A stretch of 64,000 bases of DNA from an uncultured Clostridium sp. Lineage in GTDB: Bacteria; Bacillota; Clostridia; TANB77; CAG-465. The translations under genes and the position numbers were made by a program. Within the stretch, counting starts at the first letter, position 1; every line of letters begins with the position of its first letter. Below, one piece after another: positions 567 through 8,360 of the stretch. The stretch lies in assembly GCA_900553785.1 (NCBI GenBank), contig USES01000002.1:15326-79325 (forward strand). Direction: 5' to 3'. The notes below the pieces were generated by a model, which worked only from the letters and a program-made list of their open reading frames with translations, did not search any database and had not been told where the DNA came from.

Positions 567-3086
567 ATGACAAAAAATGACAAACTAACATATATTAGTT
601 TATTTAGTAGTGCAGGTATAGGTTGTTATGGATTTAAAATGGAAGATTTTGAGTGTATAGCTACTAATGAATTGATAGAAAGAAGATTAAATATACAAAA
701 AGTAAACAAGAAATGTAGATATGAGTCTGGTTATATTTGTGGAGATATAACCTTGGATGAAACTAAAGATTTATTATTTAATGAAATAAATATGTGGAAA
801 AATAAGGAAAAGTTAGATAACGTAGATGTTGTTATAGCAACTCCACCATGTCAAGGTATGTCGGTAGCTAATTTGAAAAAGAATAATGAAATTAACAGAA
901 ATTCATTAGTTATTGAATCAATAAAACTTATAAAAGAAATAAAGCCAAAGATTTTTGTTTTCGAAAATGTAGCAGCATTCTTAAAAACAGCTTGTATAGA
1001 TATTGATGAAAATGTAAAATCTATTGATGATGCTATAAATAATAATTTAAGTAAAGACTATGTTATTATGAGTAGAATAATAAATTTTAAAGATTATGGT
1101 TCTAATTCTAGCAGAACAAGAACATTAGTAATAGGTGTGAAAAATGAATTTGAAGATGTAATATCACCTATTGATTTATTTCCTAAAAGGAAAAGGGAAA
1201 AAACTCTTGAAAAGGTTATAGGAAATTTAAGACCATTAAATAAATTCGGGGAAATTGATGAAGAAGATATATATCACTTTTTTAGAGTTTACCCAGAACA
1301 TATGAGAGAGTGGATACATGACTTGAAAGAGGGAGAGTCTGCATTTGATAATGAACAAGATGAAAAAAAACCTCATACTATTGTTGATGGAAAAATAAAA
1401 ATAAATGTACAAAAAACAGGAGATAAATATAAGAGACAATATTGGAATAAGGTTGCACCATGCATTCATACAAGAAATGATCAACTTGCCAGTCAAAATA
1501 CTATACATCCATCAGATGATAGAGTTTTTAGTATTAGAGAATTAATGAATATAATGACTATTCCAAAACAATTTAAGTGGGTTGAGCAAGATGAAAAATA
1601 TCTTAATAAAATGACAGAAATAGAGAAAAGAAAGTTTTTAAAGAAAGAAGAAATAAACATAAGACAATCTATTGGAGAAGCAGTACCTACAGAAATATTT
1701 AGGCAAATTGCATTTAATGTGAAAAACAGTTTAAATAGAAAAAACTATAAATTAAAAGATATTAATAAAATTATAACAGATTTAAATTTAACAGATAATG
1801 GGAACTTGAGTGAATATATAAAAGAAAATAGTACAACATTATCTTTCACAACATTATCTAAAATTGCAGAATTATCGAACGCTGAAAGAAATAACGAAGA
1901 AGCATTTTACACAAACAAATCATTGTTAAATTACATATATAAGGAGCTCCCTGATATCAATAAGAAAGAAATTAGAGTTTTAGAACCATCAGTAGGAGTG
2001 GGAAACTTTATTCCTTACATTATATCTAGATATAGTTATGCAGAAAAGTTAATAATAGATGTAGTAGATATAAATGACTATTCAATAGGAATATTAAAGC
2101 AATTATTGAAAATAGTGAATGTTCCTGAAAATGTAGAAATTAATTTTATTAATGATGACTTTTTATTACATGATTTTAGTAATAGATATGATTTGATTAC
2201 AGGAAATCCACCTTTTTCAAAAATTACTAACAATAAAGGTTTATTAAAAAAATATAGACAGGAATGTATAAATGATGAATCAAAGAATACAGCATCATAC
2301 TTTATAGAAAAATCGCTTAGAATAGCTGATAATGTTGTAATGATTATGCCAAAATTCTTATTAAATACTCCTGAATACAAAAAAACAAGAGAGTATTTAG
2401 AGAGCTTTTCTATAAATTCAATAGTAGACTTTGGAGAAAAAGGATTTGAAGGTGTACTTATTGAAACTATTTGTATTAATATTAGTACAAATAGTATGTC
2501 TAAAAATACAAAAGTAATTTCTGTACCATACAATATAAATATTATTCAAAAGCAATCTTATATAACTGATAAAAAATTACCATATTGGATAATATATAGA
2601 GATAAATATTTTGATAATATTTTTGATATTATGGAATTTGATATATTTACCGTATTTAGAGATAGACAAATAACTAATAGTAATACTACAAAAAAGCAAA
2701 AGGATATTTGGGTTATAAAATCTAGAAATATATCAGATAATGGAAAACAAATAGAACATATAGAAGACTATGACCAATATATAAGTAAAGGTAATTTAGA
2801 ATCTATGAGTGTTAATAAGTATCTGAACGATGAAACCGTTTATATGACACCTAATATGACATACAAACCTAGAGTGTGCAAGAAACCGATAGGAACAGTA
2901 GTTAATGGTTCGGTGGCTATATTAATTCCTAAAGACGAAAGAATTGTTTTAACACAAAAAGAAATGGAATTTTATTCAACAGACCAATATAGAAACTTTT
3001 ACAGAATAGCAAGAAACTATCAGACAAGGTCATTAAATGTAGATAATAATTCGGTATTTTTCTTTGGAAAAATGAAGGAGCAATAA
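567..3086 (+). CDS. Fused DNA methyltransferase: N-terminal C5-cytosine MTase plus C-terminal gamma-class N6-adenine MTase
   Basis: A ggagg RBS lies upstream. m5C motifs: I FSSAGIGCYGF, IV TPPCQGMS, VI FVFENV, VIII SRTRTLVIG, X GEAVPTEIF. m6A motifs: I VLEPSVGVGNF and IV GNPPF (Eco57I/TaqI-like). Confidence 0.85.
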   Translation: MTKNDKLTYISLFSSAGIGCYGFKMEDFECIATNELIERRLNIQKVNKKCRYESGYICGDITLDETKDLLFNEINMWKNKEKLDNVDVVIATPPCQGMSVANLKKNNEINRNSLVIESIKLIKEIKPKIFVFENVAAFLKTACIDIDENVKSIDDAINNNLSKDYVIMSRIINFKDYGSNSSRTRTLVIGVKNEFEDVISPIDLFPKRKREKTLEKVIGNLRPLNKFGEIDEEDIYHFFRVYPEHMREWIHDLKEGESAFDNEQDEKKPHTIVDGKIKINVQKTGDKYKRQYWNKVAPCIHTRNDQLASQNTIHPSDDRVFSIRELMNIMTIPKQFKWVEQDEKYLNKMTEIEKRKFLKKEEINIRQSIGEAVPTEIFRQIAFNVKNSLNRKNYKLKDINKIITDLNLTDNGNLSEYIKENSTTLSFTTLSKIAELSNAERNNEEAFYTNKSLLNYIYKELPDINKKEIRVLEPSVGVGNFIPYIISRYSYAEKLIIDVVDINDYSIGILKQLLKIVNVPENVEINFINDDFLLHDFSNRYDLITGNPPFSKITNNKGLLKKYRQECINDESKNTASYFIEKSLRIADNVVMIMPKFLLNTPEYKKTREYLESFSINSIVDFGEKGFEGVLIETICINISTNSMSKNTKVISVPYNINIIQKQSYITDKKLPYWIIYRDKYFDNIFDIMEFDIFTVFRDRQITNSNTTKKQKDIWVIKSRNISDNGKQIEHIEDYDQYISKGNLESMSVNKYLNDETVYMTPNMTYKPRVCKKPIGTVVNGSVAILIPKDERIVLTQKEMEFYSTDQYRNFYRIARNYQTRSLNVDNNSVFFFGKMKEQ

Positions 3087-3087
3087 T

Positions 3088-4359
3088 ATGGAAGAAAAAA
3101 TCAAACAATTTTTAAATAGTAATGATTATGATATTAGAAAAAATAATAATGCAAGATGGATAGATCAGAAATGTACTATGGACGTTCTTTCTGTTGTTGC
3201 GGATTGCATTATTGAGTTTGTAGGGGATGAAATAGAAAAAGAATTTACAACTAATGATATATGGTATAATGAATATACAGTTGAAAATGTTCAAAGTATA
3301 TTTAACAAACCAAATCCTGCTGATGAGGCAAGAAATGAGTATGACAAATGGTTTGGACAACCACTAAAATTATTGGGTAATGCAAAAGTTCTTATTGAAG
3401 AAAAAAGAGGTAATAGAAATTATTATAAAGTAAATAATATGGAAATCTTGAAATACATAGCGTCTAGGGATAGATTCGCACACAAATTTTTGGTTTTATA
3501 TATAACAAAAGTTTTACAAGATTCAGATATATATAGTTATTTTGATAATTTCTTTCAACAACAAAACAGGGAAAGTTATCAAAAATTGAAAGTAAAATAT
3601 CACAGTTTTATTCAAGAGAATACACGTATTAATGGAGATTTAGAATGTGGTAGAATATTTGCTAAGGTATTAAATCCATTGGCATTCGAATTAAAGAAAC
3701 GTGGAACTGAAAGAGGTTCAATATCATCAAATATAATAACACTAGATATGTTAATGTATAATAGGCCTAATTGGAGAGATATTTATAACAAGAAACCGAA
3801 GGAAATGACAAGAATTGATTTTGAAAGAATGTATGAAATTTCAAAAGATGATAAAATGTCAGCATATAAAATAAATAAAGCTAAAAGACAGTTAAAACAA
3901 TATAATATCAAATATAATGATGGAATATCAGAAATATTAAATGGCGTTGAGAATGGTGAAAAAGCAACTCATATGCATCATATATTTATGGCTTCAGAAT
4001 TCCCATTAATAGCATCATATGTTGAAAATTTAATAGCATTAACACCAACACAACATTTGAATCATGCTCATATAAATGGAAATACGAATTCAATTAATTA
4101 TGATTTTCAGAGATTGTGTTTAATTGCTAAGGTTGGAAAAATAAAAGAATGTCTAGAGGATGAAGAAAAAGAAAAAATATATAGTTTTGAAGATTTGTGT
4201 TATGTACTCAATGTTGGATTTAGCACAGATAAATTTGAGTATGTAGCAGTTTTTGATTTTACTACCATATTGGAATATATTGATTTTATGTATGTTACAG
4301 CAGGCGGAGAAAGTGATTGGCTTGTTGCAGAAGAACGTAAAGATGAGTATCATGTTTAA
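3088..4359 (+). CDS. Putative HNH-type restriction endonuclease partner of the fused MTase
   Basis: The ATG is 1 nt after the MTase stop, suggesting translational coupling. The HNH-like signature is THMHHIF...ENLIALTPTQHLNHAH. Confidence 0.55.
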   Translation: MEEKIKQFLNSNDYDIRKNNNARWIDQKCTMDVLSVVADCIIEFVGDEIEKEFTTNDIWYNEYTVENVQSIFNKPNPADEARNEYDKWFGQPLKLLGNAKVLIEEKRGNRNYYKVNNMEILKYIASRDRFAHKFLVLYITKVLQDSDIYSYFDNFFQQQNRESYQKLKVKYHSFIQENTRINGDLECGRIFAKVLNPLAFELKKRGTERGSISSNIITLDMLMYNRPNWRDIYNKKPKEMTRIDFERMYEISKDDKMSAYKINKAKRQLKQYNIKYNDGISEILNGVENGEKATHMHHIFMASEFPLIASYVENLIALTPTQHLNHAHINGNTNSINYDFQRLCLIAKVGKIKECLEDEEKEKIYSFEDLCYVLNVGFSTDKFEYVAVFDFTTILEYIDFMYVTAGGESDWLVAEERKDEYHV

Positions 4360-4507
4360 AATATAATAATTTTTATATAAAACAAAATATTAATGCAAAT
4401 AGCATTGGTGTTTTGTTTTTTTTATAACTAAATGAGAAAATATGATAAATAGTTTAAGTTTACATTTGATACATAAAGTGGTAAAATATAGCAAAAGTGA
4501 GGTATAT

Positions 4508-4852
4508 ATGTTGAAAAAAGAAAAAAGTTTTTGGACTTATTTAATATTTATTATTGGTATAGGATTAATTTGTAGTTGGAATAAGTGTATAGAACTAGTA
4601 AGTATATCATTAGATTGGATGAAACTAATTGCAGAATTATTAAATGACATTGTAATAAAATTTACAGGAGATGGACTCATTACTACTGTGTTTATGCATT
4701 TAATTACATACGGTTTAGTTGGTATAATATTTTACTTTATTCCATTAAGGAAGAAAATAGGAAGTTTATTTGGTAAAGTTTGTTATTGGTTAACAAGTGG
4801 AATAGTAGGAACAATATTAAATTATATAAATGCTAAAATATTTAATTTATAG
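4508..4852 (+). CDS. Small multi-pass membrane protein, function unknown
   Basis: ATG at 4508 sits behind a gtgaggt RBS. I predict three hydrophobic helices (YLIFIIGIGLIC, TVFMHLITYGLVGIIFYFI, WLTSGIVGTIL). Confidence 0.4.
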   Translation: MLKKEKSFWTYLIFIIGIGLICSWNKCIELVSISLDWMKLIAELLNDIVIKFTGDGLITTVFMHLITYGLVGIIFYFIPLRKKIGSLFGKVCYWLTSGIVGTILNYINAKIFNL

Positions 4853-5078
4853 ATAAGAAAAAATGAATAATAAACAATATGAAAGTGAAAAAATTACAAA
4901 GAAAAATGCCACAAGAAAGTAATCAGGTTTTTAGAAAATTACAGGATTACAATCTAATAATGTAAAAGGAATAACAAATTGGCTAATAGATTCTATTAAA
5001 TTATTACATTCAATTTAGGTATAGTTCAAAAAATAAAAGGCTTATGAAAAAAACATTTTTATTTTTGGGGGGATTTAT

Positions 5079-6116
5079 ATGTTATTAGAAGTTCAAAATA
5101 TATTGCAAAATGATAATTTAGATTATAATAATATAGATAAGTATTTAAAAGATGGCCATGATGAAATATTAAATGAATTATTAAATAATATTAATAAATT
5201 TAATTTAGAATCAAAAAAAATATTACTTAATCAAATAATAATCAAAACTGCTAATAAAGATATAATTGAATCAGCTTGTATGCGTATTATATCTTATATT
5301 AAATATGAATATAGTTATTATAAAAATATTTTAAAAGTTATTGCTAATAAGCAAATTCATGGCACTTGGATTTCAGAAATCAAAAGACGTTTATTAGAAG
5401 ATAATCCTAAAACTATGTATGAAGTTTTTGAGGATTTTTCTTTTGAAAAAACCTTAGATATAAATTATGATTTAATGATAATAAATAAATTTTTAGAACA
5501 ATATGATGAAAAGAAATACTTAGAAAAAGTAATTGTTAGTAGTGAACAAGCTATAAGTATATGTAGAAAATTAAATTATATTTTAACTATAAACACAAAA
5601 AACATATTAAGATTTTATTGTTATATAATTAATACATATAATTTAACTGAAAATCAATTTAAACAATTTATGGATACTTTTTTCTTCAATTTCCCATATG
5701 TGTGTAAGGAATTTGTTTTGAATAATAATTTAGATGATAAATGCTTAATAAGAAAATATTTAGACAGTAAGATTAATGATTTTGATTCAGAAAATGAAGT
5801 TAAGTTTAATATGTCTATTTTTAAGCCTAATATTCAAAGAGTTAAAGAATATAGAAGATATCAAGCAAATCAAAGTAAAGAAATTAACAAACAAGCTCAG
5901 GAAATGTCTATATTAAGGAAACTTTGCAAAACTAATACCATTTTATATAGCAATAGATACGGAATGATTGTTAATGGTATAAATGGTGAACAACTTTCTG
6001 AAAGTAGTATGAATACAATATCATATGAATATCCATATCCACTAGAATATCTTCTTGATCCGCTTGAATATATGTATAATGTTCATAATGTATTAAAACC
6101 AGGTGAGGAGGAATAA
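5079..6116 (+). CDS. Hypothetical protein (first gene of an unknown two-gene operon)
   Basis: A 345-aa ORF behind a G-rich RBS (tggggggat). It looks all-helical and N/K/I-rich, and I recognise no motif. Confidence 0.5.
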   Translation: MLLEVQNILQNDNLDYNNIDKYLKDGHDEILNELLNNINKFNLESKKILLNQIIIKTANKDIIESACMRIISYIKYEYSYYKNILKVIANKQIHGTWISEIKRRLLEDNPKTMYEVFEDFSFEKTLDINYDLMIINKFLEQYDEKKYLEKVIVSSEQAISICRKLNYILTINTKNILRFYCYIINTYNLTENQFKQFMDTFFFNFPYVCKEFVLNNNLDDKCLIRKYLDSKINDFDSENEVKFNMSIFKPNIQRVKEYRRYQANQSKEINKQAQEMSILRKLCKTNTILYSNRYGMIVNGINGEQLSESSMNTISYEYPYPLEYLLDPLEYMYNVHNVLKPGEEE

Positions 6117-6117
6117 T

Positions 6118-7701
6118 ATGAGATTGATAGTAAAGGATTATATTTCTATGTTTAAAGAAGAACAGGAAATGGAATCTTTACTAGAAAAAATATTAATTAT
6201 GAATGATTACAGCAACATTGTAGTTCCTCAAAAGGGGGTAGGGCAGCTTGGTGTTGATTTTAGTGCTCAAAAAAATGGTGAAGTTTATTTGTTTGTTTTG
6301 AAACAGCAAGATATAGATAGAACTAATTGGGATGTTGGTATAAATGCTGTGAGACCTACCTTAAATGAAATCTTAGATTCGTATATACCACAAAGATTAA
6401 GTGATTGTAATAAAAAAATAAACATTGTATTATGTACTAATGGAAACATAAAGCAGAACGTAAAACCAAATTGGGACAACTATATTAAAAATAATAGCAA
6501 AGACAATATTAGTTATGATTTTTGGGGAATTGATGAACTGGTAAACTTAACAGAATTATTTCTTATAAATGAATATATATTTGATGAAGATATTAGGACT
6601 GAATTAAGAAAATCTTTGTATTTTTTTGAAGAAGATTTTGAACTAAAATATTTTGATAATTTATTAATAAAATTAATAGAAAAAATAGATATTAAAAATA
6701 GAAGAAGAAAAATATATAAAAAATCTATAATTGTTTATACTATTATTACTAAAATGTGCATAGCTTATTCAATAAAACAAAATTCTAAAATAGCCGTAAA
6801 TATGAGCGAAAAATCATTGATTAGATATTGGAATTTTATATCTAAAAACAATTTGTTTGAAAAAGATATAGAAATGGAGTATTTACATATATTATCAGGA
6901 TATTATACAGATAGCTGTAAAAAATATATTGAAGAAATAAAAAAAGTTTATAAATATAAGCCTAGTTTCCCAATATATAATAGTATTGAATATAGGATAT
7001 TGATATATGAGGCAATAGGAATAATTACAAATTATACATATTATTTATATTACTACAATGGATTAATTGATGAAGTTGAAGAAAATATAAACTTATTAAT
7101 AATGCTAATTAATAACAATGTATCTTTTTATTATCCTTTATATGATAGTAATGCAATAGAAATAAATGCTTTAGTTTATCTTTTGAAAGAAGTTGGCAAT
7201 GATCAGGGAAGTAATATTGTTTGGATACTTTTAAATAAAATTGTTTCGAGAATAGTTAAAAGCAAATCATATTATCCTGTGGAATATGAGGATTATCAAA
7301 AAGCATTAGATATGTTTTATGAAAAAGAAGTAGAAGAATGTAAAGCAACTTTGTTAATTACTAATTTGATAGAATGGTTATACATATACAAAAAAGATGA
7401 AGATATAAATGAGATAATGGATGTTATTTATAAAAAATATCCTAATATAACTTTAAATACTTTACAGATCATTCCTGATTTAGAAGAATTATATCTAGAG
7501 GGGAATTTTCATGGTTCGTCAATTACATATATTATAGATTATAAGAATAAAAAACAAGTGAATAATATTATAAAACAATTGAAAAAAGAATATAAGTTGT
7601 CTAAATACAAATTTTATAAATATTCTGCTATGCTGTATTTATTTATTGCTTCTAGAAATTATAGACTTCCATTACCATCTACGATAATTTATAAAGATTA
7701 A
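6118..7701 (+). CDS. Hypothetical protein with a possible restriction-endonuclease-like N-terminal domain and a helical C-terminal region
   Basis: ATG is 1 nt after the upstream stop and sits behind a gaggagg RBS. The N-terminus ...QLGVDFSAQKNGEVYLFVLKQQ... resembles the D...(E/Q)xK strand pattern of Mrr-like nucleases, but the match is not canonical. Confidence 0.45.
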   Translation: MRLIVKDYISMFKEEQEMESLLEKILIMNDYSNIVVPQKGVGQLGVDFSAQKNGEVYLFVLKQQDIDRTNWDVGINAVRPTLNEILDSYIPQRLSDCNKKINIVLCTNGNIKQNVKPNWDNYIKNNSKDNISYDFWGIDELVNLTELFLINEYIFDEDIRTELRKSLYFFEEDFELKYFDNLLIKLIEKIDIKNRRRKIYKKSIIVYTIITKMCIAYSIKQNSKIAVNMSEKSLIRYWNFISKNNLFEKDIEMEYLHILSGYYTDSCKKYIEEIKKVYKYKPSFPIYNSIEYRILIYEAIGIITNYTYYLYYYNGLIDEVEENINLLIMLINNNVSFYYPLYDSNAIEINALVYLLKEVGNDQGSNIVWILLNKIVSRIVKSKSYYPVEYEDYQKALDMFYEKEVEECKATLLITNLIEWLYIYKKDEDINEIMDVIYKKYPNITLNTLQIIPDLEELYLEGNFHGSSITYIIDYKNKKQVNNIIKQLKKEYKLSKYKFYKYSAMLYLFIASRNYRLPLPSTIIYKD

Positions 7702-7790
7702 ACCTAAAAATACGATATATTGTATAAATAAATTAAAAAAATATATATATTATTTTTAATATATATAAGATTTTAATAAAATATTATATA

Positions 7791-7828
7791 CAACTGTGCT
7801 ACAAAATAACAAATGTGTAGCACAGTTG
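7791..7828. terminator. Bidirectional intrinsic terminator between convergent genes
   Basis: A 13-bp perfect stem, caactgtgctaca / tgtagcacagttg, with a 12-nt loop. A/T runs flank it on both sides. Confidence 0.7.
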
Positions 7829-7836
7829 TAAAGTTT

Positions 7837-8130
7837 TTATTCATCAAAACATCCCATAACTAACTGAGAGCCATCAACAAATTCATTTCTATAATATTTC
7901 TCCTTCCAATAGGCAATGTAATCTAAAAAGTTATTATCAAGTTTATTTAATTGTTTTTCAACGTACTTTTTATTTTCTTTTGGAACATTCCTTAAAATAC
8001 TTTCACTAATCTCGTCAAAATAAATCCAATGTTTTCTATCCTCATCACATTTTAAAGAAGATAAATCTTCTTCTCTAAATAATAACCAAGCTTTTAAAAT
8101 ATCATCATTAACTTCTCTTAAATTTTTCAT
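7837..8130 (-). CDS. Small DUF6809-like protein typical of Firmicutes mobile elements
   Basis: ATG at 8130 lies 7 nt after a ggagga RBS. The C-terminal ...EKYYRNEFVDGSQLVMGC resembles the YxxGFxDGxxL tail seen in small conjugative-transposon proteins. Confidence 0.4.
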   Translation of the reverse strand: MKNLREVNDDILKAWLLFREEDLSSLKCDEDRKHWIYFDEISESILRNVPKENKKYVEKQLNKLDNNFLDYIAYWKEKYYRNEFVDGSQLVMGCFDE

Positions 8131-8324: not shown

Positions 8325-8360
8325 CTTTGCCGGCGCTCATAACCCGAAGGCTATAAGGTT
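8325..8360 (+). pseudogene. Decayed fragment of an initiator tRNA-Met gene (anticodon arm only)
   Basis: The 15-nt core CTCATAACCCGAAGG of the initiator-tRNA anticodon arm, as I recall the B. subtilis sequence (GTCGGGCTCATAACCCGAAGGTC..GGTT), is exact within GCCGGCGCTCATAACCCGAAGGCTATAAGGTT; the flanks are only approximate. There is no acceptor, D arm or T arm. Confidence 0.3.

Follow-up and report, generated by a model that had tools for sequence, protein, structure and literature searches.

Olokun is a two-gene system that PMC10121019, where it cites Millman et al. 2022, counts among the systems of that study. When expressed alone, canonical Olokun confers protection against phages (PMC10121019; bioRxiv 10.1101/2025.07.10.664194). 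PfOlokun, a homologue from Pseudomonas, has been purified and consists of an adaptin-like protein, OloA, and a PD-(D/E)xK nuclease, OloB, which form a 2:2 complex of ~278 kDa (bioRxiv 10.1101/2025.07.10.664194). PfOlokun degraded the DNA of T7, SECphi17 and SPO1, only nicked plasmid DNA and spared E. coli DNA; its activity was seen only at 1 µM, and active-site mutants of OloB lost complex formation (bioRxiv 10.1101/2025.07.10.664194). Other papers still term Olokun uncharacterised, and its mechanism is still poorly understood. Here we analysed a two-gene operon (positions 5079–7701) in a 64,000-nucleotide (nt) stretch of DNA, hereafter the window, that derives from a 126-kb metagenome scaffold of an uncultured Clostridium sp. 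The operon is very probably an Olokun-family two-gene anti-phage defence system, carried as cargo of an integrative island of ~15.7 kb. Homology, nuclease fold, conserved residues, conservation of the pair, selection and island context are established below. Coordinates throughout are those of the window, and L-numbers label the other loci and the flanking DNA with which it was compared.

Both genes belong to Olokun by profile comparison. The product of the second open reading frame (ORF2, oloB) matched the PADLOC OloB model PDLC03926 with an E-value of 2.3e-79, its amino acids (aa) 1–524 aligning on profile positions 1–550 of 556. The product of the first (ORF1, oloA) matched the PADLOC OloA model PDLC03925 at 2e-12, with aa 132–334 on profile positions 397–585 of 596 only. 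The PADLOC Olokun models matched both members of the pair in L003 and L015, the two loci scanned for both, and in five more loci they matched the OloA partner. Homologues of the window OloB share 52–68% identity with it, followed by canonical OloB at 28–31%, and the window protein can be aligned end to end with canonical OloB of Paenibacillus, Aequorivita, Treponema and Owenweeksia.

A preliminary description of this DNA, made from the letters alone, had recognised no family for either protein and proposed an uncharacterised, candidate novel system. Scans of Pfam, NCBIfam and PHROGs indeed returned no family for ORF1 or ORF2, and sequence-based PDB searches with profiles of OloB, of OloA and of the OloB N-terminal domain turned up nothing meaningful, as would be expected if both proteins lay outside the described families and formed a truly novel, unclassified defence system. 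That possibility is contradicted by the PADLOC Olokun matches to both proteins, by a profile–profile link to canonical OloA (E-value 8e-25) and by the end-to-end colinearity of OloB with canonical OloB, including invariant residues in common; on these alignments we regard it as refuted, with next to no probability left to it. The pair is a divergent copy of known Olokun and not a new system, unusual only in that its OloA is about half the usual size. The description was right in calling it a two-gene anti-phage defence operon.

Both reading frames are intact. The longest form of ORF2 runs from a GTG at 6103; because all ORF2 homologues begin at the same MRLI... methionine, we take the ATG at 6118–6120 to be the real start. 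The oloA frame begins with ATG, downstream of a GGGGGG run at 5067–5072, and closes with a TAA at 6114–6116, so that 1 nt separates the two genes and the GAGGAGG ribosome-binding site (RBS) of oloB lies within oloA. This arrangement, read earlier as translational coupling, is confirmed in the sequence. In nine other distinct loci the stop codon of oloA likewise lies 1 nt before the oloB ATG and oloA contains the RBS, whereas the spacer measures 4 nt for L024/L025 and 24 nt for L026–L028; canonical loci also carry oloA then oloB, the two genes overlapping by 4 nt or lying a small distance apart. A short oloA stands directly upstream of a close oloB homologue in every such locus examined, at least 11 of them distinct (L003–L007, L008, L009, L010, L011, L012, L013, L014, L024/25, L026–28, L030 and L031). 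The pair and its junction are thus conserved in at least 11 loci, and the pair co-occurs with other defence genes, bearing out the co-occurrence that the preliminary description had proposed as a check.

Selection has acted on both genes. Ratios of nonsynonymous to synonymous substitution rates (dN/dS), computed against three relatives, were 0.26–0.40 for oloA and 0.07–0.17 for oloB, and both genes are under purifying selection. When the same pairs of genomes were compared, OloA and OloB were 80% versus 90% identical in one case and 51% versus 68% in another; OloA diverges two to three times faster than OloB. Full-length homologues of both proteins, the recurring junction and the dN/dS values together confirm, at the level of sequence, that the pair is no chance occurrence. 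The short-OloA loci come from metagenome-assembled genomes of Clostridia and Bacilli, mostly from gut metagenomes, and from ‘Bacterium c-19’. Searches of phage collections gave no match, and those of plasmid collections yielded just distantly related, canonical OloB from plasmids of Proteobacteria and Cyanobacteria. Some copies elsewhere are damaged: on a low-coverage contig (L031 1411–2670) oloB codon W420 is changed to a stop, both genes are broken in L013, and the oloB of Brachyspira intermedia (L020) is in two pieces.

The feature that sets the window pair apart is its OloA. Homologues of ORF1 form 24 clusters, all of 335–347 aa at 38–80% identity (~17 clusters at the 50% level), with the same start in all and with the first 100 residues conserved. 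Where OloB is canonical (27–31% identical to that of the window), the genes upstream of it encode 499–683 aa and match almost the whole OloA profile. Aligning a profile of short OloAs (alignment A3) with one of long OloAs (A7) in hhalign placed residues 105–337 of the short form on 371–606 of 616 in the long form (probability 99.6%, E-value 8e-25, 232 columns), and a smaller set of five genome-derived long OloAs gave the same placement. The two forms have the motifs NFP/NYP, EINK, TILYG/LKYG and YE..P..Y..DP in common. An exhaustive search of 1.84 billion representatives with a hidden Markov model of the short form returned 102 matches, among them ~17 full-length short clusters of 326–374 aa and many proteins of 563–646 aa that were matched via their C-terminal halves only; in several of the latter the alignment extends back to pair short-OloA residue 10–34 with long-form residue ~270–290. 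The short OloA is thus, by alignment, colinear with approximately the C-terminal half (~235–300 residues) of canonical OloA. The canonical full-length architecture, ~500–680 aa and an adaptin-like solenoid over the whole profile, is not that of the window OloA. When Pfam was scanned at relaxed thresholds, neither the long nor the short OloA gave an adaptin or HEAT match that rose above noise. The N-terminal half of ~270–370 residues is encoded by no gene elsewhere in the locus, and a 114/136-aa ORF upstream has no OloA match.

An OloA whose match covers no more than the last third to half of the canonical profile could be a 5'-truncated pseudogene fragment in a decaying, non-functional Olokun remnant, and the broken copies in L013, L020 and L031 (W420*) would suit that explanation. 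A remnant, however, would not be expected to hold a constant length of 335–347 aa in 24 clusters at 38–80% identity (~17 at the 50% level), to keep a common start and conserved first 100 residues, to preserve its junction to oloB or to show an oloA dN/dS of 0.26–0.40; in addition, no OloA N-terminal fragment lies upstream, and the upstream genes vary among loci. We consider decay very unlikely. A split or truncated oloA was likewise rejected on its conserved length, on selection and on the absence of an upstream fragment. The new element here, as far as sequence can tell, is a conserved half-size OloA of a gut Clostridia/Bacilli clade, a variant that we did not find described in the literature searched. 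Whether this clade of gut Firmicutes represents a functional ‘minimal’ subtype of Olokun, distinct from the canonical form, with an OloA that has lost the whole N-terminal half, is a more tentative matter, and we regard it as a real possibility that falls somewhat short of an even chance.

OloB, the larger protein, was modelled with AlphaFold2 on 22 homologues (predicted local distance difference test score, pLDDT, 88.7). A Foldseek search with the full-length model gave solely weak matches to VPS35, TPR and importin repeats (E-values of at least 0.09), and because these solenoid matches masked the nuclease domain, residues 1–155 were modelled separately (pLDDT 88.8). In the full-length model helices of this domain span residues 2–10, 15–28, 78–93, 116–126 and 138–149 and strands span 32–35, 48–52, 55–62, 100–107 and 131–136, so that the core of the domain is predicted to be alpha-beta-beta-beta-alpha-beta. 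The best PDB match of the separately modelled domain was AF1548 (1y88; E-value 1.6e-3), followed by a list made up nearly entirely of PD-(D/E)xK nucleases: SfsA, Nt.BspD6I, Hjc, FokI, HamA, Cdn1, MUS81, R2 and Avs3. Ten BFVD matches had E-values of 1e-3 or below, led by phage ‘restriction endonuclease’ proteins (2.9e-7 to 2e-4; template-modelling (TM) scores 0.53–0.64 over ~147 columns, the top score of 0.64 covering 149), and a ‘type IV Mrr domain’ protein fell just outside the cut-off at 3.7e-3. Residues 157–527 are 70% helix when the model is analysed with DSSP.

Conservation agrees with this fold. Residues E14, E17, P37, G40, Q43, G45, D47, A50, K62, R79, T81, E84 and D87 are invariant in the clade and in canonical OloB, and E14, E17, D47 and K62 are so from Clostridia to Flavobacteria, Treponema and Paenibacillus. 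Position 60, the (D/E) site of (D/E)xK, is V or A in every OloB, canonical included; this is therefore a trait of the family and not a defect of the window copy, and the family would therefore use a displaced acid, for which E14/E17 in helix 1 and/or E84/D87 in helix 2 are candidates. Pfam Mrr_cat (PF04471) did not match the window OloB, and matched one of 18 family members at an E-value of 0.016, under the gathering score. The N-terminal domain of OloB is, on the strength of the predicted model, a Mrr-like PD-(D/E)xK nuclease. The preliminary description had anticipated both this domain, with its non-canonical third motif, and the helical, repeat-like region behind it, and the AlphaFold models, Foldseek searches and residue conservation upheld it on each count.

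Complex formation, DNA cleavage and defence are established for the canonical homologues, and by analogy the short-OloA version probably works like canonical Olokun. Translational coupling would supply OloA and OloB in a fixed, matched proportion, and OloA would bind OloB in a hetero-oligomer (2:2 in the Pseudomonas system). This complex would keep the nuclease harmless to host DNA, with phage DNA being cut on infection. OloB would act as the effector, its Mrr-like domain cleaving phage DNA through D47 and K62, with E14/E17 and/or E84/D87 standing in for the third-motif acid, while OloA would restrain OloB, target it or do both. As the faster-diverging protein, OloA may be the sensing or regulatory subunit, and its C-terminal ~235–300 residues are presumably the part needed for partnership with OloB.

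Several observations weigh against reading the locus as a working Olokun system. OloB is only ~28–31% identical to canonical OloB, and OloA lacks the ~270–370 N-terminal residues of its canonical counterpart, so stoichiometry, regulation or the trigger could differ from those of canonical Olokun. The classical (D/E)xK acid is replaced by V/A family-wide, so that catalysis must rest on other residues, for which there are candidates only. According to the preprint, it is through an ‘N-terminal helical domain’ that OloB contacts OloA (bioRxiv 10.1101/2025.07.10.664194), whereas our model has an N-terminal nuclease and a C-terminal helical domain. Decayed copies occur in some other loci (L013, L020 and L031).

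The operon lies in an island whose left part was examined in flanking DNA (L029). From the left, the island carries a tyrosine integrase, an AAA_21 ATPase with a 207-aa partner, genes for DUF6076 and HTH_17 proteins, a replisome-organiser fragment and TnpV, then a restriction–modification (R-M) pair, the 114-aa ORF, oloAB and the convergent gene orf97; pgi, recJ and relA follow. Guanine-plus-cytosine (GC) content is 20–27% within the island and 30–35% outside. An imperfect direct repeat of 26 nt (22/26 positions) flanks ~15.7 kb. Its left copy (L029 2074–2099) adjoins the integrase, ~7.4 kb left of the window start, and extends as a complete tRNA-fMet 3' half (…GGGCTCATAACCCGAAGGTCG…CCCCCGCAACCA). 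We consider the repeats candidate attachment (att) sites of the integrase-bearing island. ARAGORN found no intact tRNA at either island end, only tRNA-fMet-derived fragments. The R-M pair, the integrase and the low GC content match the earlier placement of the operon directly downstream of an R-M system in a mobile-element defence island. Neighbours of the other short-OloA loci include type I R-M, CRISPR I-B, HTH-Fic (PDC-S04/SoFic-like), PDC-S50, NERD and nSTAND3 genes together with integrases and TnpV, and the defence-island and mobile-element setting is supported by these gene contents.

Such a setting raises the alternative that the pair chiefly serves the mobile element, as an addiction or exclusion module against competing plasmids and elements or as an island stabiliser, phage defence being incidental. 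The operon does sit at the cargo end of integrase/TnpV elements, beside orf97, in several loci for which downstream flank is available; canonical relatives occur on plasmids; and PfOlokun nicks plasmid DNA in vitro. Yet canonical Olokun expressed alone protects against phages, the neighbours are overwhelmingly anti-phage systems, and neither toxicity nor an antitoxin-like small partner is evident. We judge this alternative unlikely, although a role for the mobile element and phage defence are compatible and not mutually exclusive.

A further question is whether two genes suffice, for a three-gene system in which orf97, or in other loci an upstream HTH-Fic gene, is required and compensates for the missing half of OloA would also fit part of the gene order. 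Homologues of orf97 (35–78% identity) occupy the same position, immediately after oloB, in many short-OloA loci (L010–L012, L003–L007, L014 and L026–L028), and an HTH_3-Fic gene (PADLOC PDC-S04, E-value 4e-106; SoFic-like) lies 18 nt upstream of the short oloA in the L003 and L026 groups (L003 6014–6949; L026 229–1158). Against this, orf97 is missing from the closest relatives (L030 and L024) and from L008, is encoded on the other strand, beyond the likely terminator hairpin, and, where present, accompanies TnpV or an integrase, in the latter case one 47% identical to that of the window island. The HTH-Fic gene is absent from the window, and by itself matches a separate candidate system, PDC-S04/SoFic. 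A required third gene therefore seems to us very improbable, and the two-gene Olokun operon is retained. Library searches found no family match for orf97, which was rejected as an Olokun component since it follows the element backbone; it probably belongs to the backbone of a recurring family of integrative elements that carry Olokun as end cargo. The HTH-Fic gene could be either a neighbour that works on its own or an accessory that is optional. The 114/136-aa ORF, a small membrane-like protein as judged by eye from its translation, had no family match and was also rejected as a component, being found only in the window island among all loci compared. The features of the locus are collected in Table 1.

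Table 1. Positions in the window of the oloAB operon, its parts and the features around it.
Feature	Position	Strand	Evidence
Type II R-M system (context, not part of Olokun)	567..4359	+	Pfam and PADLOC
114–136-aa ORF between R-M and oloA	4442/4508..4852	+	Translation
oloA, short form, 345 aa, predicted non-catalytic partner of the nuclease	5079..6116	+	ORF; PADLOC OloA; homologue clusters; dN/dS
oloA part encoding aa 105–337, with homology to the C-terminal region of the long, canonical OloA	5391..6089	+	hhalign
RBS of oloB, GAGGAGG, within the 3' end of oloA	6105..6111	+	Sequence; GGAGG/GAAGAGG at the equivalent site in homologous loci
oloB, 527 aa, predicted nuclease effector	6118..7701	+	PADLOC OloB; homologues; AlphaFold model; dN/dS
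OloB N-terminal Mrr-like PD-(D/E)xK nuclease domain (predicted), aa 1–155; K39 is among its invariant columns	6118..6582	+	Domain model; Foldseek
OloB C-terminal alpha-solenoid-like domain (predicted), aa 157–527	6586..7698	+	DSSP on model
Perfect 15-bp inverted repeat with 12-nt loop between convergent oloB and orf97; likely a bidirectional terminator	7789..7830	.	Repeat search; T-rich sequence after
orf97, 97 aa, conserved small gene convergent to oloB	7837..8130	-	tblastn
Right-hand copy of the 26-nt direct repeat, from tRNA-fMet 3' half; candidate att site at the right end of the island	8332..8357	+	Repeat search on L029, alignment; GC rise

Other genes of the island and window were noted in passing. 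In the R-M methyltransferase (839 aa; 567–3086) a C5-cytosine methylase is fused to an Eco57I-like N6 methylase domain, and the protein matches PADLOC MTase_II PDLC03277 over its full length (E-value 2e-279); the gene of the type II restriction endonuclease (423 aa; 3088–4359) overlaps its stop (3086/3088) and is followed by a terminator-like hairpin (4379–4419). This R-M system is absent from other short-OloA loci. The AAA_21 ATPase beside the integrase (422 aa) matched PADLOC HEC-01A, AriA and AbiLi-like models with a best E-value of 4e-31; with its 207-aa partner, for which no known family was found, it is a candidate second defence pair in the island (L029 3662–5564, minus strand). An independent Logan assembly of a related sample (SRR1761699; L002 and L023) is interrupted precisely in the interval from orf97 to pgi: its one contig stops after orf97 and its other begins 394 nt before pgi, as would fit an island boundary, or strain heterogeneity, at this point. 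The sole tRNA-like gene found in the 64-kb window is a transfer-messenger RNA gene at 49822–50178 (minus strand) with the tag peptide ADNRLAMAA.

For annotation, the locus label should be Olokun in place of ‘hypothetical’ or ‘novel system’. A conserved, selected half-size OloA would mark the indispensable part of that protein, and the short-OloA pair would give structural and mechanistic studies a complex that is smaller and simpler. If the minimal subtype holds, binding and control of OloB would reside in the C-terminal ~235–300 residues of OloA as its core, the canonical N-terminal half would be an addition that serves, for instance, sensing or oligomerisation, and phage sensing would fall to the fast-evolving short OloA; current defence finders may also under-call the subtype, because just a third of the OloA profile was matched. 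For OloB, the middle acid is missing even in the canonical protein, and E14, E17, D47, K62, E84 and D87 are the residues of interest. For the gut microbiome, the pair adds one more defence system on the recurring integrase/TnpV elements of low-GC Clostridia.

Set beside known systems, the pair resembles Hachiman (HamA) and Lamassu (LmuA) in the general plan of a PD-(D/E)xK effector that is bound in a hetero-complex to a second protein, larger or regulatory, and HamA (8zue) and LmuA (9nxx) were among the weak structural matches of OloB (E-values of at least 0.1). Unlike theirs, the partner OloA carries no helicase, structural maintenance of chromosomes (SMC) or nucleoside triphosphatase motif (no Walker A motif was found in OloA or OloB), and the two systems have no sequence relationship with the window pair. 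Nucleases of the Mrr_cat (PF04471)/AF1548 type share the alpha-beta-beta-beta-alpha-beta core with OloB; in both, beta2 starts with an Asp, beta3 ends with a Lys and helix 1 carries a conserved Glu. OloB nevertheless departs from Mrr_cat in having no significant sequence match to it and a V/A, not Q, E or D, two residues before the Lys, and from Mrr in that its domain is fused to a predicted solenoid of 370 aa and would depend on a partner protein. Olokun is the closest of all. The window clade differs from it in an OloA of 335–347 aa, whereas the canonical adaptin-like protein has ~500–680 aa; in an OloB that is ~25 aa shorter and without a 6-aa insert in the beta2–beta3 hairpin and two solenoid inserts; and in its hosts, which are low-GC gut Clostridia and Bacilli for the short form and Proteobacteria or Bacteroidota for the canonical one. 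With Olokun it shares two co-oriented, tightly coupled genes in the order oloA then oloB, an OloB colinear over the full PADLOC OloB profile with identical invariant nuclease residues, a C-terminal module of OloA common to both, and the setting in defence islands and mobile elements.

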